Virus record (IMG/VR): IMGVR_UViG_2671180699_000001 | Coordinates: 1-33,901 of that record | Reading direction: 5' to 3' (one strand) | DNA length: 33,901 bases | From: a virus | Lineage: Duplodnaviria > Heunggongvirae > Uroviricota > Caudoviricetes | Shown here: positions 1,419 to 17,425 of the stretch, piece after piece | How positions within the stretch are numbered: position 1 is the stretch's first letter | How the letters are laid out: the number at the start of each line of letters is the position of its first letter | Position numbers and translations under genes: made by a program | The notes under the pieces: model-generated | Told to the model about the DNA's origin: nothing | Databases searched by the model: none | The model's input: only the letters and a program-made list of their open reading frames with translations

Positions 1419-2489
1419 TTATTTGATTTCAATTTTGTCCCACTCCCTGCCTCTGTCATCACGATACTGTGATGCCATGGTGTCCGACTTATGCCCGAGA
1501 AGATGTTGAGCAAACTTATCGCTTATCTGCTTCTCATAGAGTCTTGCAGACAAACTGCGCAACTCGTGAAAGGTAGGCGGATCCCCTTCGAAGGAAAGAC
1601 CTGATGCTTTTCGTGCGCGCATAAAATACCTTGATACTGTGCCGGATGAAAGCGGTTCGCGACGAGTAGATGCAATTATGGTTTCTCCGCCAAGAATCTC
1701 TTTGCATTTATCAAGTGTTTCCTTCATTGATATCCCGAGAGCATCAACATGCAATGTTGTTGGGATGGCAATTTTTACGCCTGTTTTGCTTTGCTCGACA
1801 TAAAGATATCCATCTACGATATCAGACCACTTCATTTCGCATAAATCACCAACTCGTTGCCCGGTAACAACAGCCAGTTCCATTGCAAGTCTGAGCCAAC
1901 ATGGTGATGATTCTGCTGCTTGATAAATTTTCAGGTATTCGTCAGCCGTAAGTCTTGATCTCCTTACCTCTGATTTTGCTGCGCGAGTGGCAGCGACAGG
2001 GTTTGTTGTTATATGGCCTTCAGCTATTGCCTCTCGGAATGCATCGCTCAGTGTTGATCTGATTAACTTGGCTGACGCCGCCTTGCCCTCGTCTATGTAT
2101 CCATTGAGCATTGCCGCAATTTCTTTTGTGGTGATGTCTTCAAGTGGAGCATCAGGCAGACCCCTCCTTATTGCTTTAATTTTGCTCATGTAATTTATGA
2201 GTGTCTTCTGCTTGATTCCTCTGCTGGCCAGGATTTTTTCGTAGCGATCAAGCCATGAATGTAACGTAACGGAATTATCACTGTTGATTCTCGCTGTCAG
2301 AGGCTTGTGTTTGTGTCCTGAAAATAACTCAATGTTGGCCTGTATAGCTTCAGTGATTGCGATTCGCCTGTCTCGGCCTAATCCAAACTCTTTACCCGTC
2401 CTTGGGTCCCTGTAGCAGTAATATCCATTGTTTCTTATATAAAGGTTAGGGGGTAAATCCCGGCGCTCATGACTTCGCCTTCTTCCCAT
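1419..2489 (-). CDS. int: Integrase, tyrosine recombinase (lambda Int type, 356 aa)
   Basis: Protein matches lambda Int along its length as recalled (MGRRRSHERRDLPPNLYIRNNGYY…); adjacent to P' arm. Confidence 0.97.
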   Translation of the reverse strand: MGRRRSHERRDLPPNLYIRNNGYYCYRDPRTGKEFGLGRDRRIAITEAIQANIELFSGHKHKPLTARINSDNSVTLHSWLDRYEKILASRGIKQKTLINYMSKIKAIRRGLPDAPLEDITTKEIAAMLNGYIDEGKAASAKLIRSTLSDAFREAIAEGHITTNPVAATRAAKSEVRRSRLTADEYLKIYQAAESSPCWLRLAMELAVVTGQRVGDLCEMKWSDIVDGYLYVEQSKTGVKIAIPTTLHVDALGISMKETLDKCKEILGGETIIASTRREPLSSGTVSRYFMRARKASGLSFEGDPPTFHELRSLSARLYEKQISDKFAQHLLGHKSDTMASQYRDDRGREWDKIEIK

Positions 2490-2685
2490 TTCTGATCCTC
2501 TTCAAAAGGCTACCTGTTACTGGTCGATTTAAGTCAACCTTTACCGCTGATTCGTGGAACAGATATTCTCTTCCATCCTTAACCGGAGGAGGGAATATCC
2601 TGCATTCGCGCACCCATCGACGAACTGTTTCAAGGCTTCTTGGGCGTCGCTGGCGAGCGTTCCACTCCTGAAGTGTCAAGTACAT
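2467..2685 (-). CDS. xis: Excisionase Xis (72 aa)
   Basis: MYLTLQEWNARQRRPRSLETVRRWVRE… as recalled for lambda Xis; overlaps int start as in lambda. Confidence 0.95.
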   Translation of the reverse strand: MYLTLQEWNARQRRPRSLETVRRWVRECRIFPPPVKDGREYLFHESAVKVDLNRPVTGSLLKRIRNGKKAKS

Positions 2686-4749: not shown

Positions 4750-4910
4750 ACAGCTCCCCGTTTATTATTTATCTCCTCAGCCAGCCGCTGGGCTTTCAGC
4801 GGATTTCGGATAACAGAAAGGCCGGGAAATACCCAGCCTCGCTTTGTAACGGAGTAGACGAAAGTGATCGCGCCTACCCGGATATTATCGTGAGGATGCT
4901 TCATTGCCAT
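4722..4910 (-). CDS. Small early-left hypothetical protein (62 aa; lambda orf60a-like by size and position)
   Basis: ORF ends just before exo start. Confidence 0.45.
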
Positions 4911-5581
4911 TGCTCCCCATATACAAAACCAATTTCAGCCAGTGCCTCGTCCATTTTTTCGATGAACTCCGGCACCATCTCGTCAAAACTCGCCATGTAC
5001 TTTTCATTCCGCTCAACCACGACGTAATGCAGGCCTTCACGCTTCATGCGCGGGTCATAGTTGGCAAAGTACCAGGCATCTTTTCGCGTCACCCACATGC
5101 TGTACTGCACCTGGGCCATGTAAGCCGATTTTATTGCCTCGAAACCACCGAGCCGGAATTTCATGAAATCCCGGGAGGTAAACGGGCATTTCAGTTCAAG
5201 GCCGTTGCCGTCACTGCATAAACCATCGGGAGAGCAGGCGGTGCGCATATTTTCGTCGCGATAGATGATCGGGGATTCAGTAATATTCACGCCGGAAGTG
5301 AATTCAAACAGGGTTCTGGCGTCGTTCTCGTACTGTTTTCCCCAGGCCAGCGCCTTAGCATTAACTTCCGGAGCCACACCGGTGCAAACCTCAGCCAGCA
5401 GGGTGTGGAAGTAGGACATTTTCATGTCAGGCCACTTCTTTCCTGAGCGGGGCTTTGCTATCACGTTGTGAACTTCTGAAGCGGTGATGACGCCGAGCCG
5501 TAATTTGTGCCATGCATCATCCCCCTGTTCGACAACTCTCACGTCGATCCCGGTACGCTGCAGGATAATGTCCGGTGTCAT
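4901..5581 (-). CDS. exo: Lambda exonuclease (Red alpha, 226 aa)
   Basis: [15 protein letters not shown]…GEQWQ, as recalled for lambda Exo, same length. Confidence 0.97.
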
Positions 5582-6363
5582 GCTGCCACCTTCTGCTCAG
5601 TGGCTTTCTGTTTAAGGAATCCAAGAGCTTTCACTGCTTCGGCCTGTGTCAGTTCTGACGATGCGCGAATGTCGCGGCGAAATATCTGGGAACAGAGCGG
5701 CAATAAGTCGTCATCCCATGTTTTATCCAGGGCGATCAGCAGAGTGTTAATCTCCTGCATGGTTTCATCGTTAACCGGAGTGATGTCGCGTTCCGGCTGA
5801 CGTTCTGCAGTGTATGCAGTATTTTCGACAATGCGCTCGGCTTCATCCTTGTCATAGATACCAGCAAATCCGAAGGCCAGACGGGCACACTGAATCATGG
5901 CTTTATGCCGTAACATCCGTTTGGGATGCGACTGCCACGGCCCCGTGATTTCTCTGCCTTCGCGGGTTTTGAATGGTTCGCGGCGGCATTCATCCATCCA
6001 CTCGGTAACGCAGATCGGATGATTGCGGTCTTTGCGGTAAATCCGGCATGTGCAGGATTCGTTGTCCTGTTCAAAGTCCATGCCGTCAAACTGCTGGTTT
6101 TCGTTGATGATGCGGGACCAGCCATCAACGCCCACCACCGGAACGATGCCGTTCTGCTTATCAGGGAAGGCGTAAATTTCTTTCGTCCACGGATTAAGAC
6201 CGTACTGGTTGGCGACGATCAGCAATGCGATGAACTGCGCATCGCTGGCATCACCTTTAAATGCCGTCTGGCGAAGAGTGGTGATCAGTTCCTGTGGGTC
6301 GACAGAATCCATGCCGACTCGTTCAGCCAGCTTCCCAGCCAGCGTTGCGAGTGCTGTACTCAT
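5578..6363 (-). CDS. bet: Bet single-strand annealing protein (Red beta, 261 aa)
   Basis: [37 protein letters not shown]…, as recalled for lambda Bet; ATGA overlap with exo. Confidence 0.97.
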
Positions 6364-6368
6364 CCGTT

Positions 6369-6665
6369 TTATACCTCTGAATCAATATCAACCTGGTGGT
6401 GAGCAATGGTTTCAACCATGTACCGGATGTGTTCTGCCATGCGCTCCTGAAACTCAACATCGTCATCAAACGCACGGGTAATGGCTTTTTTGCTGACCCC
6501 GTGGCGTTGCAAATGATCGATGCATAGCGATTCAAACAGGTGCTGGGGCAGGCCTTTTTCCATGTCGTCTGCCAGTTCTGCCTCTTTCTCTTCACGGGCG
6601 ATCTGCTGGTAGTGACGCGCCCAGCTCTGAGCCTCAAGACGATCCTGAATGTAATAAGCGTTCAT
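6369..6665 (-). CDS. gam: Gam, RecBCD inhibitor (98-aa short form)
   Basis: [21 protein letters not shown]…VDIDSEV, as recalled for lambda GamS; an in-frame TAA about 15 codons upstream excludes the long form. Confidence 0.93.
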
Positions 6666-6740
6666 GGCTGAACTCCTGAAAATGGCTGTGAAAATATCGC
6701 CCGCGAAATGCCAGGCTGATTAGGAAAACAGGAAAGGGGA

Positions 6741-7151
6741 TTAGTGATTCAGGCCGTTACCGCGTCCGTCGAGAAAAACTTCTACGAGCAAATCACGGGT
6801 ATAAGTGCGCTCGATGCCGCGATGCAGATAAAGCCGTCCGCGTAAATTAGCTGATGCAGTCCAGGTACCATCTTTGTGTTTGACCAGCATTCCTGGCATG
6901 ACCGCACCGCGATTAACGGTCTGCGTTCCGTAATGTTGATGAACCATAAAAACTCCTGCCCGTAAGCTGGGCTGCTGAACATATAGAGACTTCTGCGCGT
7001 ATTCAGGCGGTGGATGGCCGCCGGTTGTCATAACTAAGCCGCCTCGTTGAAGCGACTGAGGTATAAAGTGTTGTGTTGATTTCAGCTGGTCACACCGACG
7101 TTCACGCGTCCGTTTCACCCCTCGCACTCCCCGAAGCCTGCTGAAATTCAA
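6741..7151 (-). CDS. First ORF of the pL operon, hypothetical; Arg-rich N-terminus (KRTRERR) in the N-antiterminator position, C-terminal part in the kil position
   Basis: Track ORF 136 aa with non-ATG start; internal ATG with GAGG upstream at 7031 would give 96 aa; no confident family assignment. Confidence 0.35.
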
Positions 7152-7169
7152 ACTGCGGATCTAAGCGGT

Positions 7170-7219
7170 CATCGCAACGGTGAAACAGGTGGTTACCGTA
7201 TCGTTGTGTCGTTGCGATG
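7170..7219. repeat. Perfect 10-bp inverted repeat (CATCGCAACG … CGTTGCGATG) with 30-nt spacer in the pL leader
   Basis: Read directly; lies immediately downstream of the putative pL -10 on the minus strand. Confidence 0.7.
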
Positions 7220-7225
7220 AATTTA

Positions 7226-7262
7226 ATTTAAAACTATAGTTGTTTTATCGTCAACAACAAAA
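7226..7262 (-). promoter_or_regulatory. Putative pL promoter with overlapping operator (oL)
   Basis: Minus strand -35 TTGACG, 17-bp spacer, -10 TTAAAT; operator TTGTTGTTGAC-N6-AAAACAAC closely matches the oR site. Confidence 0.45.
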
Positions 7263-7387
7263 GTTGTTTTGTCGGTTGTTTTAAATATAACTGGTTGTAT
7301 TTAGGATGGATTTATTTTGTGACTTGCATCGCATAGCGATAACTGAAGTGAGGTGTGGTGGTTTTTTGGACGGTATGAGTTATGAGG

Positions 7388-7420
7388 GGGAGGAAAAGAA
7401 AACCCGGCGCGGTTGCCGGG
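7388..7420 (-). terminator. Rho-independent terminator after the lipoprotein gene (tImm-like)
   Basis: Stem CCCGGC / GCCGGG with 6-nt loop, followed on the minus strand by TTTTCTTTTCC. Confidence 0.6.
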
Positions 7421-7428
7421 TATGATTA

Positions 7429-7809
7429 TCAGTCAGCCCAACCTGATTTCGAGTTTATTTGGGTTTCTGACATTGTGTATTTCTTAATCGTGTCATCGTT
7501 AAAAAGAATAGTAAGTTCTTTTTTCGTACCGTTCGTTCCATTATGGAATAATCCATAGAATGGAATAAAAGTGGTGCCATTAACTTTTACTTTTGCAAAG
7601 GCGTACTTCCAGATCTCGTTTCCACTGTCAGTATATGAAACAGCATCAGGAGAACCAAAGTAAGATTTAACCTCATTCTTGGTTGTTTTACCTTCCTGAA
7701 GTTTAGACTGGACACTAATTTCAGTTTCATTTTTGAGTTGCTGGTTGCCTGAAGAAGCACACCCAGCCAATACAGATGCCATCATGGCAGCGATTAGGAT
7801 TTTTCTCAT
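7429..7809 (-). CDS. Lipoprotein (126 aa) encoded downstream of cI in the rexAB position
   Basis: Signal peptide with lipobox LAGC (MRKILIAAMMASVLAGCASS); AT-rich; co-oriented with and immediately downstream of the repressor gene. Confidence 0.8.
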   Translation of the reverse strand: MRKILIAAMMASVLAGCASSGNQQLKNETEISVQSKLQEGKTTKNEVKSYFGSPDAVSYTDSGNEIWKYAFAKVKVNGTTFIPFYGLFHNGTNGTKKELTILFNDDTIKKYTMSETQINSKSGWAD

Positions 7810-8038
7810 TTTATGTTTCCATTCATTATAATCAGAAACATCTTAACATAATGATTCGAAATAAAAACCGCTACGAGATAGGGGGACATTTTGCTGACAG
7901 TAGCAACAAATCTCAGCTAACAACGAGAATATTTACTGAAATATGCAAACAGATTTGGCGTTCTTATAGAGAATTTAGTGCAATATCTAATCCGAGTGGT
8001 ATAAACCTTAACCTTCGCTCCCTTAAGTCGTAGATAAA

Positions 8039-8728
8039 TTAACCATGCTTCCTGTACGTCTGCGGCATGCTTCCAATGACCTTACCGAATATGAACACCC
8101 GGTTCATCTCGTCTTTCTCGATCGGGTCCCACGGCGAGTAGCTCTTGTTATCAGAGATAACCAGCAGCTTATCCTTCATCATTTGAAGACGTTTTACATG
8201 GGCAGTGTCGTCGTACAGAAACGCATAGATGCCATCACCGTCGAAAGATTTAACAGTGATATCAACGAACAGCAGGTCACCTGGTTCGATCGTCCCTGAC
8301 ATGCTGTCACCTCGCACGTTAATGATGCGGATATTTTCCGCCTTCCTGCCATCGAACATGTGACGAGCATCGTCAAACGAGTACTCAACCGAGCGTAGAA
8401 CTTCTACAAACTCACGGTTGATTACACCTGGCCCGGCACTGACTTCTATATCAAGAACGTCAATTTTGAAGTATTTGGAATGGCTGACAGTTGATTGTAT
8501 TGGTTGCACTGTACTGTCTGACATATTTCCAACGCCAGAAGATAACCATTCTGCGCGCACACCCAAAGCGTTCGCGATCTCCACGATTTTAGTTGTTTGG
8601 TTAGCTTTCCCTGTTTCGATTTTCTGAATAGCAGCCTGGCTAACCCCGACCAAATCCCCAAGCGCCTTTTGTGTAAGGCCTCGCGCTAATCTGGCTTCTT
8701 TAAGTCTTTCTGAGAGTGTTGTTTTCAT
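8039..8728 (-). CDS. cI: CI-type prophage repressor (HTH_XRE N-terminal domain plus S24 LexA-like peptidase domain, 229 aa)
   Basis: HTH (LTQKALGDLVGVSQAAIQKIE), Ala-Gly cleavage site (SAGPG), catalytic Ser (GDSMSG) and Lys (HVKRL). Confidence 0.93.
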   Translation of the reverse strand: MKTTLSERLKEARLARGLTQKALGDLVGVSQAAIQKIETGKANQTTKIVEIANALGVRAEWLSSGVGNMSDSTVQPIQSTVSHSKYFKIDVLDIEVSAGPGVINREFVEVLRSVEYSFDDARHMFDGRKAENIRIINVRGDSMSGTIEPGDLLFVDITVKSFDGDGIYAFLYDDTAHVKRLQMMKDKLLVISDNKSYSPWDPIEKDEMNRVFIFGKVIGSMPQTYRKHG

Positions 8729-8767
8729 AGATCAAATGTACAACCAAGGTTTTATTTCATCAAACGA

Positions 8768-8803
8768 AAATGGTTGTTGACTAAAAACAACCATAGTTTT
8801 AAT
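8768..8803 (+). promoter_or_regulatory. oR operator with pR promoter; divergent cI/cro control region
   Basis: Inverted repeat ATGGTTGTT-N7-AACAACCAT overlapping -35 TTGACT, 17-bp spacer, -10 TAATCT; GGAGG Shine-Dalgarno before cro. Confidence 0.6.
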
Positions 8804-8832
8804 CTTTATTCGGATTAACCACGGAGGTTGTT

Positions 8833-9063
8833 ATGAACCCAGCAATCAAAACAGCGATCAATATCGTTGGTTCACAAAAGAAACTAGGCGATGCCTGCGA
8901 AGTTTCACAGCAGGCCGTCTATAAGTGGCTTCACAACAAAGCAAAGGTATCCCCTGAACATGTCGGCAGCATTGTTACGGCTACTGGTGGAGTTGTGAAG
9001 GCATACCAGATTCGCCCGGATCTTCCGAAGTTGTTTCCACACACCGAAAAGAACGCAGCTTAA
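8833..9063 (+). CDS. cro: Cro-like HTH regulator (76 aa)
   Basis: Small HTH protein (…CEVSQQAVYKWL…) divergent from the repressor. Confidence 0.8.
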   Translation: MNPAIKTAINIVGSQKKLGDACEVSQQAVYKWLHNKAKVSPEHVGSIVTATGGVVKAYQIRPDLPKLFPHTEKNAA

Positions 9064-9075
9064 ATTTCCATTTCA

Positions 9076-9088
9076 CGCTCTTTAACAA
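9076..9088 (+). promoter_or_regulatory. boxA-like antitermination element (CGCTCTTTAACAA) downstream of cro (nutR position)
   Basis: Near-identity to the boxA consensus (rrn boxA GCTCTTTAACAA; lambda CGCTCTTA); no obvious boxB hairpin follows. Confidence 0.45.
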
Positions 9089-9132
9089 TAAGCAATCAAC
9101 TTAACAGTCAATTCAAACTAAAGGAGTCAATT

Positions 9133-9672
9133 ATGCAACCACTTACATACCAACAGACTAGCGGATTTATTCCGACTGCGGTGATAAATCGTTCTCAAAC
9201 AAAACAAGCTCCAGGCCACGAAAAAATCCGTGATGCCGTCCGCGCCTGGTCGGCTGTAGATAATCAGGATGTCGTTGCCGCACTCATTGTGAATGAGTAT
9301 CGGGAGCAGGGCGACGGCACCATCGATTTCCCTGATGATGTCAGCCGTGCACGCCAGAAGCTGTTCCGCTTCCTCGATAACAAATTCGATTCTGAAAAAT
9401 ACCGAAATAACGTGCGTGAACTGACCCCGGCAATTCTGGCGGTACTACCGCTGGAATATCGCGGTTACCTGGTTGAGCAGGATAGCTTCATGACTCGGTT
9501 GGCTGAAATGGAAAAGGAACTCAGTGAGGCAAAACAGGCTGTCATTCTCAACGCACCACGCCACCAGAAACTGAAGGAAATGAGTGAAGGTATTGTGTCG
9601 ATGTTTCGTGTGGACCCGGATCTGGCTGGTCCATTAATGGCGATGGTGACCACCATGCTGGGGGCAATATGA
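9133..9672 (+). CDS. YdaT-family regulator (CII functional analogue position, 179 aa)
   Basis: Motif LTPAILAVLPLEYRGYL resembles the YdaT family as recalled; sits between cro and O. Confidence 0.65.
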   Translation: MQPLTYQQTSGFIPTAVINRSQTKQAPGHEKIRDAVRAWSAVDNQDVVAALIVNEYREQGDGTIDFPDDVSRARQKLFRFLDNKFDSEKYRNNVRELTPAILAVLPLEYRGYLVEQDSFMTRLAEMEKELSEAKQAVILNAPRHQKLKEMSEGIVSMFRVDPDLAGPLMAMVTTMLGAI

Positions 9673-9758
9673 CAGGTTCAGAAATGGCGAAAGTCGGTCT
9701 GCGGGAACAGAACCGACTTTCAGGTGCAAATCGTAACACACTCATTGCGGGAGGAATT

Positions 9759-10688
9759 ATGGCAAACACTGCTGAGATATTCAATTTTCCAGTGCCGGAT
9801 GCGGCACAAAAGGAGCCGCGCGTGGCAGATCTCGATGATGGTTATACGCGCATTGCAAATGAGTTGCTGGAAGCTGTGATGCTGGCCGGATTAACACAGC
9901 ACCAGCTTCTGGTCTTCCTGGCTGTCATGCGCAAAACATATGGCTTTAATAAAAAACTGGATTGGGTGAGCAACGAGCAACTTTCCGAGTTGACCGGGAT
10001 ATTGCCGCACAAGTGTTCTGCTGCAAAAAGTGTTCTGGTAAAGCGTGGGATTTTTATTCAGAGCGGGCGGAATATCGGCATTAATAATGTGGTCAGTGAA
10101 TGGTCAACATTACCCGAATCAGGTAAGAAAAATAAAGTTTACCTGAAAGAGGTAAATTTACCTGAATCAGGTAAGAAAAGTTTACCCAAATCAGGTAAAG
10201 GCACTTACCCGAATCAGGTAAACACAAAATACAAACTAACAAAAGACAATATAAAACCTTTTTCGTCCGAGAATTCTGGCGAATCCTCTGACCAACCAGA
10301 AAACGATCTTCCTGTGGAGAAACCAGATGCTGCAATTCAGAGCGGCAGCAGGTGGGGGACAGCAGAAGACCTGACCGCCGCAGAGTGGATGTTTGACATG
10401 GTGAAGACCATCGCGCCATCAGCCAGAAAACCGAATTTTGCAGGGTGGGCTAACGATATCCGCCTGATGCGTGAACGTGACGGCCGTAACCACCGCGACA
10501 TGTGCGTGCTGTTCCGCTGGGCATGCCAGGACAACTTCTGGTCCGGTAACGTGCTAAGTCCGGCCAAACTCCGCGACAAGTGGACCCAACTCGAAATCAA
10601 CCGTAACAAGCAACAGGCTGGCGTGATAGCCGGAAAATCAAAACTCGACCTGACAAACACTGACTGGATTTACGGGGTGGATTTATGA
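9759..10688 (+). CDS. O: Replication initiator O (lambda O type); ORF opens at 9669 but the GGGAGGA-preceded ATG at 9759 is the likely start
   Basis: …VADLDDGY…L…KTYG…NK…SEWS… resembles lambda O as recalled; iterons embedded in the gene. Confidence 0.92.
   Translation: MANTAEIFNFPVPDAAQKEPRVADLDDGYTRIANELLEAVMLAGLTQHQLLVFLAVMRKTYGFNKKLDWVSNEQLSELTGILPHKCSAAKSVLVKRGIFIQSGRNIGINNVVSEWSTLPESGKKNKVYLKEVNLPESGKKSLPKSGKGTYPNQVNTKYKLTKDNIKPFSSENSGESSDQPENDLPVEKPDAAIQSGSRWGTAEDLTAAEWMFDMVKTIAPSARKPNFAGWANDIRLMRERDGRNHRDMCVLFRWACQDNFWSGNVLSPAKLRDKWTQLEINRNKQQAGVIAGKSKLDLTNTDWIYGVDL
10110..10223 (+). repeat. Origin iterons: five about 18-bp direct repeats (TTACCYRAATCAGGTAA, one degenerate) followed by an AT-rich tract to about 10262
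   Basis: Repeats read directly inside O, as in ori-lambda (which has four). Confidence 0.85.
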
Positions 10689-11386
10689 AAAACATCGCCG
10701 CACAGATGGTTAACTTTGACCGTGAGCAGATGCGCCGGATCGCCAACAACATGCCGGAACAGTACGACGAAAAGCCGCAGGTACAACAGGTAGCGCAGAT
10801 CATCAATGGTGTGTTCAGCCAGTTACTGGCAACTTTCCCGGCGAGCCTGGCTAACCGGGACCAGAACGAACTGAACGAAATCCGCCGCCAGTGGGTTCTG
10901 GCTTTCCGGGAAAACGGGATCACCACGATGGAACAGGTTAACGCAGGAATGCGCGTAGCCCGTCGGCAGAATCGACCATTCCTGCCATCACCCGGGCAGT
11001 TTGTTGCCTGGTGCCGGGAAGAAGCATCCGTTACCGCCGGGCTGCCAAACGCCAGCGAGCTGGTTGATATGGTTTACGAGTATTGCCGGAAACGTGGCCT
11101 GTATCCAGATGCAGAGTCTTATCCGTGGAAATCAAACGCGCACTACTGGCTGGTTACCAACCTGTATCAGAACATGCGGGCCAATGCGCTGACTGATGCG
11201 GAATTACGGCGCAAGGCTGCCGATGAACTGGCCTGTATGACAGCGCGAATTAACCGTGGTGAGGCGATACCTGAACCAGTAAAACAACTTCCTGTCATGG
11301 GCGGGAGACCGCTTAATCGTGTTCAGGCTCTGGCGAAGATCGCAGAAATCAAAGCGAAGTTTGGGCTGAAAGGAGCAAGTGTATGA
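10685..11386 (+). CDS. P: Replication protein P (DnaB helicase loader, 233 aa)
   Basis: Same length and position as lambda P; sequence recognised as lambda P type. Confidence 0.93.
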   Translation: MKNIAAQMVNFDREQMRRIANNMPEQYDEKPQVQQVAQIINGVFSQLLATFPASLANRDQNELNEIRRQWVLAFRENGITTMEQVNAGMRVARRQNRPFLPSPGQFVAWCREEASVTAGLPNASELVDMVYEYCRKRGLYPDAESYPWKSNAHYWLVTNLYQNMRANALTDAELRRKAADELACMTARINRGEAIPEPVKQLPVMGGRPLNRVQALAKIAEIKAKFGLKGASV

Positions 11387-11670
11387 CGGGCAAAGAGGCA
11401 ATTATTCATTACCTGGGGACTCATAAGAACTTCTGTGCGCAGGACGTTGCCGCGGTAACAGGCGCAACCGTAACCAGCATAAATCAGGCTGCGGCTAAAA
11501 TGGCGCGGTCAGGAATCCTGGTCGTTGATGGTAAGGTCTGGCGAACGGTGTATTACCGGTTCGCTACCAGAGAAGAACGGGAAGGAAAGGTGAGCACGAA
11601 TCTGATTTTTAAGGAGTGTCGTCAAAGTGCCGCGATGAAGCGGGTGTTGGCTTTATATGGAAGAGAGTAG
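11383..11670 (+). CDS. ren: Ren (95 aa)
   Basis: Same size and position as lambda ren, directly after P. Confidence 0.85.
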   Translation: MTGKEAIIHYLGTHKNFCAQDVAAVTGATVTSINQAAAKMARSGILVVDGKVWRTVYYRFATREEREGKVSTNLIFKECRQSAAMKRVLALYGRE

Positions 11671-11734
11671 GTATGAGCAATTATTGTTACTAATTTTAGT
11701 TTTACGACATTCGTGATAACTAAATAATTGATGT

Positions 11735-11989
11735 GTGGAACTGAATTATAAAGGGGATGATGTTTTGGGAAATAAAGAAAATATCGATTGTAAGCACACA
11801 AGAAGCTCATGCTATAAAAACAAGCAGATGAAAGATGTTATTTATATTACATTGCCTAAACTCACTGAAGAAGAAGTAGAAATTTTTAAGGGACCAATGC
11901 ATAAAGCATTGCTTGCAGGGATAAATGTTACAAAAAAGGCAGTTTCTGATGCCCTGCTAAACAAAGGGATAAAAGTTGAATTTAAATAG
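11735..11989 (+). CDS. Small hypothetical ORF in the ren-nin insertion (start uncertain; GTG, TTG or ATG giving 53-84 aa)
   Basis: AT-rich, Lys-rich; convergent with the 472-aa gene; weak start signals. Confidence 0.3.
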   Translation: MELNYKGDDVLGNKENIDCKHTRSSCYKNKQMKDVIYITLPKLTEEEVEIFKGPMHKALLAGINVTKKAVSDALLNKGIKVEFK

Positions 11990-12004
11990 AGTAATTCAGT
12001 GGCA

Positions 12005-12032
12005 ACAATAGCACTCATTTGTGAGTGCTATT
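12005..12032. terminator. Bidirectional hairpin terminator between convergent genes (12-bp perfect stem CAATAGCACTCA / TGAGTGCTATTG)
   Basis: Read directly; sits in the 50-bp gap between the two convergent ORFs. Confidence 0.6.
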
Positions 12033-12040
12033 GAAATTTA

Positions 12041-13459
12041 TTAGAAAATAATGTTTGCTATATCCGAGATAGCATTTAAAGAACCTCTGTGGTCACTTCC
12101 TGTTTTAGGTAAAATATAGGAATATCGAGGGTCTTCATTATATGTTAACTTCCAGTGTTTTCCATCGCTTGACGCACTGAAACCTAAGTCCTTTAAATTT
12201 CTTTGTGTTGCGCTATCCATGCTTCTGTAACCTGTTAAAGTCCTTTTAAGTAATTGGCGGCGACTCTCGGTTTCTTTATTGTATTCATTATTGGCAATTA
12301 GGGATGATAAGATATGGTAGCTTCTACCAAATTCATTTTTATTTTTTATGGCAGTTTTTAGTGCGTCAATAATTATATTTTTGATTTCTCCATCAAAAAA
12401 ATCAGTCTCTTCACCAGCATTAAGCACAATGCTTCCTTGGGCTGAAGCTTGTGATTGAAGAGTGCGTACTCTGTGCTCTAAAGAGGAGATCTTATGCTTA
12501 AGATCTTCTATTTGGTCATCTTTCGCAACATTATCGGCTTCGTAAAGCGCCATCAGTTCGCGTGTGTATTCTCCTCTTTCTTTGAGTGAGTTAATAGAGT
12601 CTTTCGTTTTTCTGGTTTGTATCTCACTCCATCCACTATCTGAGACAGGAGCCATTGTAGTCGTAGCTCTTACAACATCATCAAATAACTCATCTTCAAA
12701 TTCTTTTGCGGTTTTCTCACCACGGCGATAAAAACTGATATTTTGACCCCGTGGCCAATAGATACCAACAGCACCAGCATAGGCATTTTTAGCATTTGTC
12801 TCATTTTTTAGCTTAATAGAAAATAGTCTATTGCTAGGCTCAATTAATACATGTGCTAATCCGCATACCTTTCTTGCAAGGCGTTCTGGGATGATATTGT
12901 GAGCATGTTCATTAAAAAAATACTTGGAGCTAACGTATATTATTGGTAGTCTGTTGTCAGTTTCACCATTTATAACTTTAGCTGCTATATTTAAATGTTC
13001 ATCAGTATCATCTAAGGAATGAGGTTCGACTGACACCTTGAAAATATCATCAAGACCACCAGAAAATTTATCAATCAATCTCATAACAACTAATGGTTTC
13101 TTAGGTTGCGGGGCTAGATAAGCTGCATCTTGGCTTACAACGCTAGATTCCACCTGAATCCACATGGTATCAGTTTTGAGATTTTTATTAATTGAAATAT
13201 CTGTTACCCATTTGTGTGGCTCAGATATTTTCGAATACCTAAAACAGCCTAAACTAGTATCTTTGTTTTTATAAGTTATTATATCAATTCTTTCATTTTT
13301 AGACTCTATGAAGTACTCCTCGCTTTTATAATCACATACTAATTGTGCTGGAATAAAAGTTGTATGTGGTGAGTCGTTTACCCAAGAAAAACATTCATTA
13401 AAGATCTCAGCTAGAGATGTGGAGTTTGAAACATAAAAACCAGTTGAGAAATATTTCAT
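12041..13459 (-). CDS. Orphan 472-aa protein in the ren-nin insertion; function unknown, candidate anti-phage/abortive-infection protein
   Basis: Long uninterrupted ORF on the strand opposite to the replication/nin operon; low GC; central coiled-coil (EDLKHKISSLEHRVRTLQSQ); no TM helices, no Walker A seen. Confidence 0.75.
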   Translation of the reverse strand: MKYFSTGFYVSNSTSLAEIFNECFSWVNDSPHTTFIPAQLVCDYKSEEYFIESKNERIDIITYKNKDTSLGCFRYSKISEPHKWVTDISINKNLKTDTMWIQVESSVVSQDAAYLAPQPKKPLVVMRLIDKFSGGLDDIFKVSVEPHSLDDTDEHLNIAAKVINGETDNRLPIIYVSSKYFFNEHAHNIIPERLARKVCGLAHVLIEPSNRLFSIKLKNETNAKNAYAGAVGIYWPRGQNISFYRRGEKTAKEFEDELFDDVVRATTTMAPVSDSGWSEIQTRKTKDSINSLKERGEYTRELMALYEADNVAKDDQIEDLKHKISSLEHRVRTLQSQASAQGSIVLNAGEETDFFDGEIKNIIIDALKTAIKNKNEFGRSYHILSSLIANNEYNKETESRRQLLKRTLTGYRSMDSATQRNLKDLGFSASSDGKHWKLTYNEDPRYSYILPKTGSDHRGSLNAISDIANIIF

Positions 13460-13734
13460 GAAATTTCCTTATTAAAAATGAGATTAATCTCATTGGCTAT
13501 GATAATTGTTACCCTCCTTTGGATCTAGTGTTCATTTGACATAAGAACCTATTGATTCATCATAATCAACTCGCCATAATCATGTCATCGGAGCCTGAAC
13601 AACTCCGGTGACTTCTGCGCTTTGAGGGGACTCAAAGTGCAAACGACAATCAGAACACCTTTCAACCAGTCACAGATGCAGAAATGCACCTGCGATATCT
13701 TGCATCCAACGTTTGACCTCTGCGGAGGTGAAGC

Positions 13735-14190
13735 GTGAACCTCCCACAAGATGGTATCAAATTGCATCGCGGTAACTTCACCGCTATCGGTCGGCAGATC
13801 CAGCCTTATCTGGAGGACGGCAAATGCTTTCGCATGGTGCTTAAACCGTGGCGCGAGAGACGCAGTCTTTCCCAGAATGCACTCAGCCACATGTGGTACA
13901 GCGAAATCAGTGAATACCTCATCAGCAAGGGTAAAACGTTCGCCACTCCAGCTTGGGTAAAAGATGCTCTCAAACACACATATCTCGGTTATGAAACCAA
14001 AGACCTGGTTGATGTCGTAACCGGTGATATCACCACTATCCAGTCGTTACGCCATACCTCCGATCTTGATACCGGAGAGATGTATGTCTTCCTGTGTAAG
14101 GTTGAAGCCTGGGCGGTGAATATTGGCTGCCACCTGACTATTCCGCAGAGCTGCGAGTTCCAGCTGCTCCGCGACAAGCAGGAGGCGTAA
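13735..14190 (+). CDS. ybcN: YbcN/NinB-family protein (151 aa, GTG start per ORF track)
   Basis: SLSQN…W motif typical of the NinB family; DLP12-type nin gene order. Confidence 0.8.
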
Positions 14191-14360
14191 TGGCTACACC
14201 GCTTATTCGTGTCATGAACGGACACATCTACAGAGTACCAGATCGTCGTAAGCGTAAACCGGAGCTGAAGCCTTCCGAAATACCAACACTGCTCGGATAT
14301 ACCGCCAGCCTGGTTGATAAAAAATGGTTGCGACTGGCAGCAAGGAGGAATCATGGCTGA
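14190..14360 (+). CDS. ninE: NinE (56 aa)
   Basis: [61 protein letters not shown] overlap with ybcN; below the track size cutoff. Confidence 0.8.
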   Translation: MATPLIRVMNGHIYRVPDRRKRKPELKPSEIPTLLGYTASLVDKKWLRLAARRNHG

Positions 14361-14643
14361 TTTGAGAAAAGCAGCGCGTAGTCGGGAATGCCAGGTAAGA
14401 ATCCCTGGCGTATGTAATGGCAACCCTGAAACGTCTGTACTGGCACATATCCGGCTGACTGGATTGTGCGGCACCGGTACCAAACCGCCAGACCTGATTG
14501 CCACCATTGCATGTTCTGCCTGCCACGACGAAATCGACCGCCGCACACATTTTGTCGATGCTGCATATGCAAAAGAATGCGCGCTGGAAGGTATGGCGAG
14601 AACACAGGTTATCTGGCTGAAAGAGGGGGTTATTAAGGCGTGA
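14353..14643 (+). CDS. ybcO: YbcO-like DUF1364 Cys-rich protein (start at AGGAGG-preceded ATG 14353)
   Basis: Cys motifs ([11 protein letters not shown] … CSACHDEID); DLP12 nin order. Confidence 0.8.
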
Positions 14644-15002
14644 ATACCTACAGCATCACATTACCCTGGCCTCCGAGCAATAATCGCTATTACCGCCATA
14701 ATCGCGGGCGCACGCACGTCAGCGCAGAGGGGCAGGCATACCGCGATAACGTCGCCCGAATCATTAAAAACGCAATGCTGGATATCGGCCTGGCTATGCC
14801 TGTGAAAATCCGCATTGAGTGCCACATGCCGGATCGCCGTCGCCGTGACCTGGATAATCTGCAAAAAGCCGCTTTTGACGCACTCACTAAAGCAGGTTTC
14901 TGGCTGGATGATGCTCAGGTCGTTGATTACCGCGTTGTGAAGATGCCTGTTACCAAAGGTGGGAGGCTGGAACTGACCATCACCGAAATGGGGAATGAAT
15001 GA
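14640..15002 (+). CDS. rusA: RusA Holliday-junction resolvase (120 aa)
   Basis: [37 protein letters not shown]… recognised as E. coli RusA. Confidence 0.95.
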
Positions 15003-15139
15003 TGTTTGAGTTTTATATGGCAGAACGTCTTCGCCACCGCTGGGGGCGTCTGCGCTTATATCGTTTCCCCGGTTCTGTTTTGACCGATTACCGAATACTG
15101 AAGAATTACGCCAAAACCCTGACAGGAGCAGGAGTATGA
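14999..15139 (+). CDS. ylcG: YlcG-like small protein (46 aa)
   Basis: [46 protein letters not shown]; overlaps rusA stop. Confidence 0.7.
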
Positions 15140-15224
15140 AGTCAGAGATAACAATCAACTAATACTGTTTTGTTGATTTTTGCTTGTAATTGGCGTTCTG
15201 GTCTGATTTTTGTGGAGTAAGTTG

Positions 15225-15265
15225 ATGCGTGATATTCAGATGGTTCTTGAGCGTTGGGGAGCGTG
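15225..15265 (+). CDS. Q antiterminator (phage 82 / QuuD type), 5' fragment only, truncated by assembly gap
   Basis: MRDIQMVLERWGAW then N-run. Confidence 0.65.
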
Positions 15266-15275
15266 NNNNNNNNNN
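15266..15275. other. Assembly gap (10 N)
   Basis: N run in sequence. Confidence 0.99.
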
Positions 15276-15468
15276 GCCACCGACGGCATTGCGGTCAGAA
15301 AAAGATGATATTGAATCGCCCATTGAAAAACTGGAGGGCAGCGTCGCTGATCTGAATAAAAAATTGTCGGTGCTGATTCCTTCTGAAGATGAAAAAAAAC
15401 GCCGCGATGAGCAGTTTGCGGCGTTTTACGATTATTGCATTGAAGTTACTCTCGCAGGAATTTTGTGA
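15276..15468 (+). CDS. 3' fragment of an unidentified gene continuing from the gap (…SPIEKLEGSVADLNKKLSVLIPSEDEKKRRDEQFAAFYDYCIEVTLAGIL)
   Basis: Open frame runs from the gap edge; overlaps the minus-strand ORF below, so only one of the two is likely real. Confidence 0.25.
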
Positions 15469-15708
15469 AGATTTTTGAGGAGGGTAAATCTCTTCAGTAA
15501 GCTTAATGGCGGACGCTGCAATTAATTCAGGAAGGTCCGCAAGGTCATCTGTCAGTGGATATGATGAAAAATCGGCGGCAGTTCTGTTAAGAAGCGCTTT
15601 AACTAATTCCTTTTCCTTCTCCGGCAACAAGTTGATTAGAGCTACGACTGCTTGCCTGAGTGCGATTAAATCAGCAAAAGTTTGTTTAGGTAGATTTGTG
15701 TAATCCAT
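15295..15708 (-). CDS. Hypothetical protein upstream of and divergent from the lysozyme gene
   Basis: ATG with GAGG 6 nt upstream; N-terminal 100 aa look protein-like, C-terminal part overlaps the plus-strand fragment. Confidence 0.35.
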   Translation of the reverse strand: MDYTNLPKQTFADLIALRQAVVALINLLPEKEKELVKALLNRTAADFSSYPLTDDLADLPELIAASAIKLTEEIYPPQKSSQNSCESNFNAIIVKRRKLLIAAFFFIFRRNQHRQFFIQISDAALQFFNGRFNIIFF

Positions 15709-15821
15709 AGTCGCCTCTGTGTTTATCAGATTGACATCCTCCTCCCGCCAGTGCCCATCACTGGTGAGGTAAGATTTAACATATCCGGGGATTTGAAGCC
15801 GATAAATCCTGATAAATATCC

Positions 15822-16849
<1,028 letters not shown>

Positions 16850-17212
16850 ATTAATATTAAATCGGATTATTTTTAGCGCTGAATGTGAAATTTAAATAAA
16901 AAGGACTCTTCCATGAGTCAAAATCCTTGAAATCTTAAGGGTAAGATAAAAGGTCATTAGACAGAATGACACGTTTTATTAATAAATAAAGCTATTGTTT
17001 CATTCGTGTGTTTTTCTTTACAAAAGTAATCCTTGCTATGGTTGGTTAATCATGCGTTAATGGTGTTCTGGTTTGTTACAAAATTATCTGAAGCAGTCAT
17101 TGTTATAATTTTATTATTTGTACCTCTTGAGATTTCCTTGTTGGTTTTTCTCTCTGATATTTTTTTTCGGACCATTCTGCCCAAGGGCTAACTTCTTCAA
17201 AAGGTAATAATG

Positions 17213-17425
17213 ATGTCTAACAAAATGACTGGTTTAGTGAAATGGTTTAACCCTGAAAAAGGTTTTGGTTTCATCACGCCGAAAGATGGTAGCAAAGATG
17301 TGTTTGTCCATTTCTCAGCTATTCAGAGCAACGATTTCAAAACGTTAACTGAGAATCAGGAAGTCGAATTTGGTATTGAGAACGGACCTAAAGGCCCCGC
17401 GGCTGTTCATGTTGTGGCACTTTGA
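17213..17425 (+). CDS. cspI: Cold-shock protein (CspA family; CspI-like)
   Basis: [38 protein letters not shown]… with RNP1/RNP2 motifs. Confidence 0.93.

Follow-up and report, generated by a model that had tools for sequence, protein, structure and literature searches.

The spacer between cro and the next gene of a lambdoid phage raises the question of what a boxA can do at the nutR position when the boxB hairpin is missing. The stretch of DNA analysed here, 33,901 nt long and referred to as the window, belongs to a lambdoid phage or prophage whose immunity region is 99.9% identical to that of Escherichia phage PhiR26_1 and which is related to the Bievrevirus 4A7 group. Its early region is laid out in Table 1. 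The putative pR overlaps an operator inverted repeat at 8770-8794, and boxA would lie about 265 nt into the transcript that starts there. The first gene 3' of boxA encodes a YdaT-type protein, for which a CII-like function has been described (PMC8630535, PMC9986795).

Table 1 Features of the window, with emphasis on the early region and the spacer downstream of cro.
Feature	Position	Strand	Remarks
int	1419-2489	-	
xis	2467-2685	-	
exo, bet, gam	4901-6665	-	assigned on the basis of the PhiR26_1 annotation
kil	6741-7031	-	
pL leader	7031-7220	-	structured, upstream of kil; without boxA, boxB-type nutL, N gene or put signature
putative pL	7225-7254	-	TTGACG, 18-nt spacer, TAAATT
terminator	7402-7421	-	
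cI repressor	8039-8728	-	HTH and S24 peptidase
putative pR	8777-8805	+	TTGACT, 17-nt spacer, TAATCT
cro	8833-9063	+	YdaS/Cro family, 76 aa
G-poor tract	9005-9175 (boundaries approximate)	+	C > G (C/G 2.0-2.7, G 9-15%); covers cro end, boxA and ydaT start
cro-ydaT intergenic spacer	9064-9132	+	69 nt; unstructured, A-rich and G-poor (A27 C15 G6 T21)
boxA, CGCTCTTTAACAA	9076-9088	+	no mismatch to the GYTCTTTAANA consensus or the 12-nt core of the rrn boxA
Shine-Dalgarno GGAG of the ydaT-like gene	9123-9126	+	
YdaT-type CII analogue	9133-9672	+	179 aa; first gene 3' of boxA
O, P, ren	9669-11670	+	

Beyond ren, and before the nin region, lies an AT-rich ORF of 472 aa (12041-13459, minus strand) that is antisense to the pR operon, is bounded by a 12-bp bidirectional hairpin (12006-12033) and has a weak PADLOC match only (HEC-07, 1e-9). 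In PhiR26_1, another gene, PD-lambda-1, takes its place, so that the site is probably a defence-gene hotspot; transcription from pR would need to cross the antisense ORF before it reaches Q. The Q antiterminator gene (QuuD-like, MRDIQMVLERWGAW...) is itself broken by a run of ten Ns at 15267-15276, and the sequence beyond is unrelated to Q, so that the window is a scaffold join whose two sides may not be contiguous. Two morons are also present: a lipoprotein gene with weak BamE-domain similarity (7429-7809, minus strand), which lies between cI and pL and has its own terminator, and a gene for a cold-shock-protein homologue in the late region (17210-17425, plus strand).

Judged by its sequence, the element is a genuine boxA, and it occupies the nutR position. 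It begins 13 nt after the cro stop, lies 45 nt ahead of the ydaT ATG and is the only copy of CGCTCTTTAACAA in the whole window when up to two mismatches are allowed. Within it, GCTCTTTAACA at 9077-9087 is a perfect match to GYTCTTTAANA, the gamma-proteobacterial BoxA consensus of Baniulyte et al. 2017 (PMC5725501). The 13-mer GCTCTTTAACAAT is common to the window and to the rrn leader boxA of E. coli, a leader sequence that was checked in 5426 of 5426 complete E. coli genomes (median 7 copies), while the boxA of lambda nutR reads CGCTCTTA. The consensus occurs once in the window against 0.16 expected, and at least once in 15 of 100 shuffles, so composition by itself is not decisive; for a 69-nt spacer on the sense strand, we estimate the chance of a boxA at ~1e-4. 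What makes the boxA significant is its position, together with its homology to same-position boxA elements in related cro modules. The element is intergenic, untranslated and accessible in RNA (mean unpaired probability 0.61), and would be transcribed from the putative pR.

Structure prediction bears out the statement in an earlier note on this DNA that no boxB is apparent in the 40 nt after boxA. The 45 nt 3' of boxA fold with only -1.7 kcal/mol (z 0.0), compared with -6.4 to -19.8 kcal/mol at 15 nut sites of relatives and -9.4 kcal/mol at lambda nutR. Neither the isolated spacer (MFE -3.6 kcal/mol, z 0.1) nor the segment 9055-9140 (-5.2 kcal/mol, z 0.13) departs from its shuffles. A boxB-type hairpin was sought in the spacer, in the 45 nt after boxA, upstream and in a 240-nt context, and none stood above shuffles; folding found no hairpin directly 5' of boxA either, where the boxB-boxA order of rrn leaders would place one. 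A permissive Rfam scan of 6000-16000 returned chance-level matches only.

The spacer has other properties that bear on the start of ydaT. The sequence AAGGAGU (9121-9127), which includes the ydaT Shine-Dalgarno, is complementary to the boxA core GCUCUUU (9077-9083) over 7 bp with two G-U pairs, forming a weak helix, and binding of NusB/E to boxA might in principle compete with sequestration of the Shine-Dalgarno. The spacer is polymorphic for an imperfect tandem duplication of 12 nt, in which AACAGACTGATT precedes AACAGTCAATT (inserted at 9102/9103; loci L022, L023, L035, L040 and L047); this duplication is linked to a weaker Shine-Dalgarno, GGAG being changed to GGAA at 9126. The TAA stop of cro is in frame with ydaT (9061-9135), with 23 codons and no stop between them, and read-through would give a Cro-YdaT fusion; this is probably coincidence. 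The frame is kept by the 12-nt duplication variant and broken by one variant with a 1-nt deletion.

Comparison with relatives points to where this boxA came from. Cro homologues with 63-86% amino acid identity occur in 14 other Enterobacterales genomes, eight of which (Izhakiella, Erwinia, Xenorhabdus, Buttiauxella, Photorhabdus, Arsenophonus and two Rosenbergiella) have a boxA with zero to two mismatches at a distance of 10-43 nt beyond the end of cro, and in each of them a hairpin and a lambda-type cII come after it. At least seven of the eight also have a boxA-bearing nutL to the left of cI, usually with exact CGCTCTTTAACAA; the nutL hairpin is similar to the nutR hairpin of the same phage (UAUGCCGCGAGGUGUA at both sites in Photorhabdus), and the ORF after nutL matches the N-like family phrog_271 in six of seven relatives. 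By alignment, the window boxA is the positional homologue of the nutR boxA of these relatives, and the rrn-like form is, on the same comparison, the usual one in their nut sites, lambda being the deviant. The earlier note had thus placed boxA correctly at the nutR position and was right that it matches the rrn boxA better than that of lambda; since the rrn-like form is usual in this phage group, this likeness is not a distinguishing feature. The nutR boxA deviates by one or two bases in five of the eight N-containing relatives, whereas the orphan in the window is a perfect 13-mer.

The window aligns to the nutR region of relatives at boxA and then again at a cII-leader motif (AACTAATCAACA-like), and the ~60 nt missing between the two correspond to boxB and a second hairpin in the relatives. 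We infer this "deletion" from a short, AT-rich alignment, for which an illegitimate recombination junction is an equally possible explanation. With boxA at the nutR position and boxB missing relative to these phages, the spacer looks like a nutR that has lost boxB rather than a nut site with a new partner. Among relatives without a nutR boxA, three (L008, L010 and L012) carry a boxA-like GCTTTTTAACAA or CGCTCTTTAACAA on the minus strand in their pL operons, 1258, 1348 and 1832 nt left of cro, respectively, followed after ~40 nt by a conserved GTTTAGACCC motif and a small hairpin. An N-like ORF was not recognised within 600 nt of these sites, which may represent a different kind of nutL.

The remaining parts of an N system are also missing. 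A second boxA was found neither anywhere in the 33.9-kb window, including the minus strand within 4 kb left of cro where a nutL boxA would be expected, nor on either strand within 4 kb in 80 copies of the module. The pL-operon ORFs tested in the window comprise Kil, an excisionase, a DksA-like protein and unknowns, none of which matched phrog_271, and no N gene is annotated in related complete phage records. To our knowledge, N-less lambdoid phages are common and their early transcription is largely unstudied, the put RNA of HK022 and HK639 being the sole characterised alternative. We derived a put signature (GGCGKGNTCA(N)GGAWGA...CAAT, a two-stem RNA) from putL and putR of HK022 and putL of HK639; it recovers these sites and both sites of Salmonella phage UPF_BP1; neither the window nor the remaining 98 of the 101 loci compared gave a match. 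Here, we show that the phage is without an N system, boxB, nutL, N and put RNA all being absent.

Two candidates in the pL leader were considered and rejected. The leader has a 9-mer, TGCGAGGGG, in common with putL of HK639, and reading it as an HK639-like putL was discarded on account of the absent signature, the lack of a right-operon copy and a fold z of -1.4. A cryptic N was considered in an ORF that starts at GTG 7118 with the arginine-rich-motif-like VKRTRERR; of 60 variants, 21 have a TAG at 7058 within this ORF, whose only family match is to Kil, from residue 60 of the longest (136-aa) reading. The ORF (7032-7118, minus strand) has GGGGAG ahead of its start, runs in frame into kil and begins with ATG in five variants, and it is probably not a conserved coding extension. 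The leader as a whole (~190 nt, untranslated, from pL to kil) opens with an 11-bp hairpin (UCAUCGCAACG...CGUUGCGAUGA, 7220-7169) and is ~94% identical in phages with a different immunity region, the homology beginning at ~7218.

In E. coli genomes, cro, boxA and spacer travel as one mosaic module, and homology to other alleles starts at the ydaT ATG. The cro-boxA-ydaT module is present in 1515 of 5426 complete E. coli genomes, with 1712 copies in all. The 4A7-type allele (4A7 and three E. coli genomes) combines a different cro with the same ydaT-O-P-ren operon across a 30-nt spacer without boxA, and the cro-ydaT junctions of HK639, Enterobacter and Klebsiella are likewise without boxA. Several cro alleles that lack boxA end in a conserved hairpin around the cro stop, GCCGCC-UAA-N-GGCGGC (L003 at ~10019-10041; L220-L222 at ~463-485; L005, L006 and L008-L010 at the cro stop), with a compensatory G-C to U-A change in L222. 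With this hairpin, the cro-cII junction seems to be built in a different way that may be functional.

Variation within the module is scarce. The spacer is identical in 71 of 80 IMG/VR copies and varies at eight positions, two of which are core boxA bases (G9077T, C9078T); boxA is intact in 118 of 119 further IMG/VR copies, the exception being an A>G at boxA position 9. These three singleton variants give no sign of extra constraint on boxA relative to its flanks and are too few substitutions to decide. Since all copies are ~97% or more identical, which leaves little power, neither the conservation nor the small number of variants is informative on selection. A search of viral contigs with Cro returned only copies in which Cro was at least 99% identical and added no diverged boxA-only lineage. 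Overall, boxA without boxB is seen only in one nearly clonal E. coli module, while diverged relatives have either boxA with boxB or no boxA.

The reading we favour, with rather more confidence than doubt, is that boxA is an orphan left over from an old nutR, with no more than a dispensable, host-only effect. As one half of the ancestral site, it would have been inherited together with the cro module by a lambdoid lineage that now lacks an N system. What remains resembles a lambda-type nutR in lying just after cro on the pR transcript, before a CII-type gene, with a boxA element in a rut-like setting; it differs in having no boxB hairpin, no cognate N and no nutL, and in pairing a full rrn-like 13-mer with a YdaT-type CII analogue, where lambda has CGCTCTTA and cII. 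NusB and NusE bind consensus boxA tightly, and by analogy, the boxA of the window probably still binds them. As the ribosome leaves the cro stop, the unstructured boxA RNA could bind host NusB-NusE, which together with NusA, NusG and SuhB could form a host-only Nus complex on RNA polymerase, set within a G-poor tract that resembles the rutA/rutB Rho entry site of lambda. If there is an effect, it would be modest and independent of N, altering either Rho-dependent polarity or the translation of ydaT. Comparative data suggest that such an effect is dispensable for this type of phage, because sister phages with the same ydaT-O-P-ren operon do without boxA. Against a mere relic, a perfect 13-mer is what would be expected if boxA works without N and boxB, as it does in rrn, which mildly favours a retained function.

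That boxA is instead under selection as a stand-alone BoxA of the rrn, suhB or CRISPR-leader type is possible, and we hold this view only tentatively. By analogy with those systems, NusB-NusE would nucleate NusA, NusG and SuhB on RNA polymerase leaving cro, and either of two outcomes could follow: Rho-resistant transcription from pR, that is, N-independent processive antitermination of ydaT-O-P and beyond, or translational repression of the CII-like ydaT, as seen with suhB and its BoxA. Precedent for a boxA that acts alone comes partly from the rrn operons, where Berg, Squires and Squires are said to have found in 1989 that no more than the rrn boxA is needed for reporters to read through Rho terminators, and Stringer et al. 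reportedly described in 2020 a BoxA upstream of Salmonella CRISPR arrays. The rrn leader boxA (with NusA, B, E, G, SuhB and S4) shares with the window the 13-mer, a single-stranded context and the absence of a required phage protein. The window differs from the rrn leader in having neither an upstream boxB nor a downstream GU-rich boxC, and the rrn boxA precedes a long untranslated RNA, whereas the boxA of the window stands between two translated genes.

A closer parallel is the 5' UTR of suhB, where BoxA alone recruits the Nus complex and modulates both Rho termination and translation (PMC5725501; reviewed in PMC12360218), and where it remains active with up to 100 nt inserted before the Shine-Dalgarno (PMC5725501). 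As at suhB, the window has a perfect consensus within 50 nt of a start codon in a leader or spacer, and its exact GYTCTTTAANA 45 nt before the start codon agrees with the criteria of Baniulyte et al. (PMC5725501); it could likewise alter Rho termination or translation without boxB. In favour of a selected element also speak the unstructured RNA, the identity with the host rrn boxA and the perfect form of this boxA compared with relatives, many of whose N-assisted nutR boxAs are degenerate. With N and put absent, the phage yielded no other device for early antitermination, which leaves room for boxA to matter in pR transcription that reaches Q. On the other side, different genera keep the suhB BoxA at an orthologous gene, whereas here no diverged lineage showed boxA-only conservation; the pL operon has no counterpart, rare variants fall in core positions, and the sister phages manage the same downstream operon without boxA.

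We consider it somewhat unlikely that the region serves mainly as the rut part of a Rho-dependent attenuator resembling tR1 that lies between cro and ydaT, with the identity of boxA incidental. The tract at 9005-9175 has the features used here to recognise rut sites, namely about 80 nt or more of unstructured RNA with C above G, and is free of significant structure. In the lambda record, rutA (38249-38266) starts at the first base of boxA and rutB comes after boxB, and by composition and layout the spacer resembles a rutA placed directly next to a rutB, the boxB being left out. However, the untranslated part of the tract is short (69 nt), translated genes are close by, the Shine-Dalgarno is strong, composition is a weak predictor of Rho sites, and the exact 13-mer is left unexplained. 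A rut role would be compatible with boxA being an orphan remnant as well as with a stand-alone BoxA.

The strongest form of the stand-alone proposal, in which the phage uses boxA as its own device for early antitermination or regulation and borrows the host rrn-type Nus complex (NusB/E/A/G/SuhB) without any phage protein, strikes us as decidedly unlikely.

The proposal of the earlier note, Nus-dependent antitermination with a non-canonical RNA partner, divides into two parts. Involvement of Nus factors is plausible from the sequence, position and accessibility of boxA. The partner RNA found no support, there being neither a hairpin nor an Rfam family, and no protein that would need one was found, with no phrog_271 match among the tested pL ORFs and no nutL; in the comparison with related nut sites, the homology of boxA holds, and the pattern is one of boxB loss with ~60 nt missing. 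A complete non-canonical nut site, relying on an unrecognised RNA element or on an N-like protein from the phage or a co-resident prophage, is accordingly very improbable to us. Its appeal lies in the nutR position and in the arginine-rich start of the pL-leader ORF at GTG 7118. Against it, the 45 nt on each side of boxA form no hairpin, and neither a nutL nor an N-like ORF was found, the ORF at 7118 being interrupted in about a third of its variants and related by family match to Kil only. The N proteins known to us need a cognate boxB, which also counts against such a site. A chance match, which the 15% of shuffles with a hit might suggest, has a negligible probability in our view, since the full 13-mer is exact, on the sense strand, within a 69-nt spacer and at the nutR position, and, decisively, since a positionally homologous boxA follows the homologous cro in eight other genomes.

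The put RNAs of HK022 and HK639, antiterminator RNAs that act without a protein, offer a further comparison. Like the window, they belong to N-less lambdoid phages, and in HK639 the cro is likewise YdaS-like and the cII YdaT-like; the window differs in that its spacer has no two-stem structure and the put signature is absent. A survey of the literature on boxA in connection with prophages, YdaS or YdaT brought up no description of the boxA site of the window. In the supplement of Baniulyte et al. (PMC5725501), GCTCTTTAACA is catalogued for two E. coli strains, S88, where it stands 3 nt ahead of "cII", and 55989, where it precedes "C1"; the distance does not fit the window locus. BoxA, the decay of nut sites and stand-alone BoxA elements are already known, and this particular site is best filed as a stand-alone or orphan BoxA sequence and not as a nut site.

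If boxA is only a relic, as we favour, it documents the decay of a nut site after the loss of N and warns against annotating nutR from boxA alone. Were it the phage's own device, it would carry pR transcription past Rho or throttle the translation of YdaT, and in the latter case, the lysis-lysogeny decision would be tied to the availability of free Nus factors and, through it, to the growth rate of the host. Present in more than a quarter of the complete E. coli genomes compared, the module offers a natural test of what a lone perfect boxA does, be it nothing at all, processivity against Rho, or control over the translation of a CII analogue.
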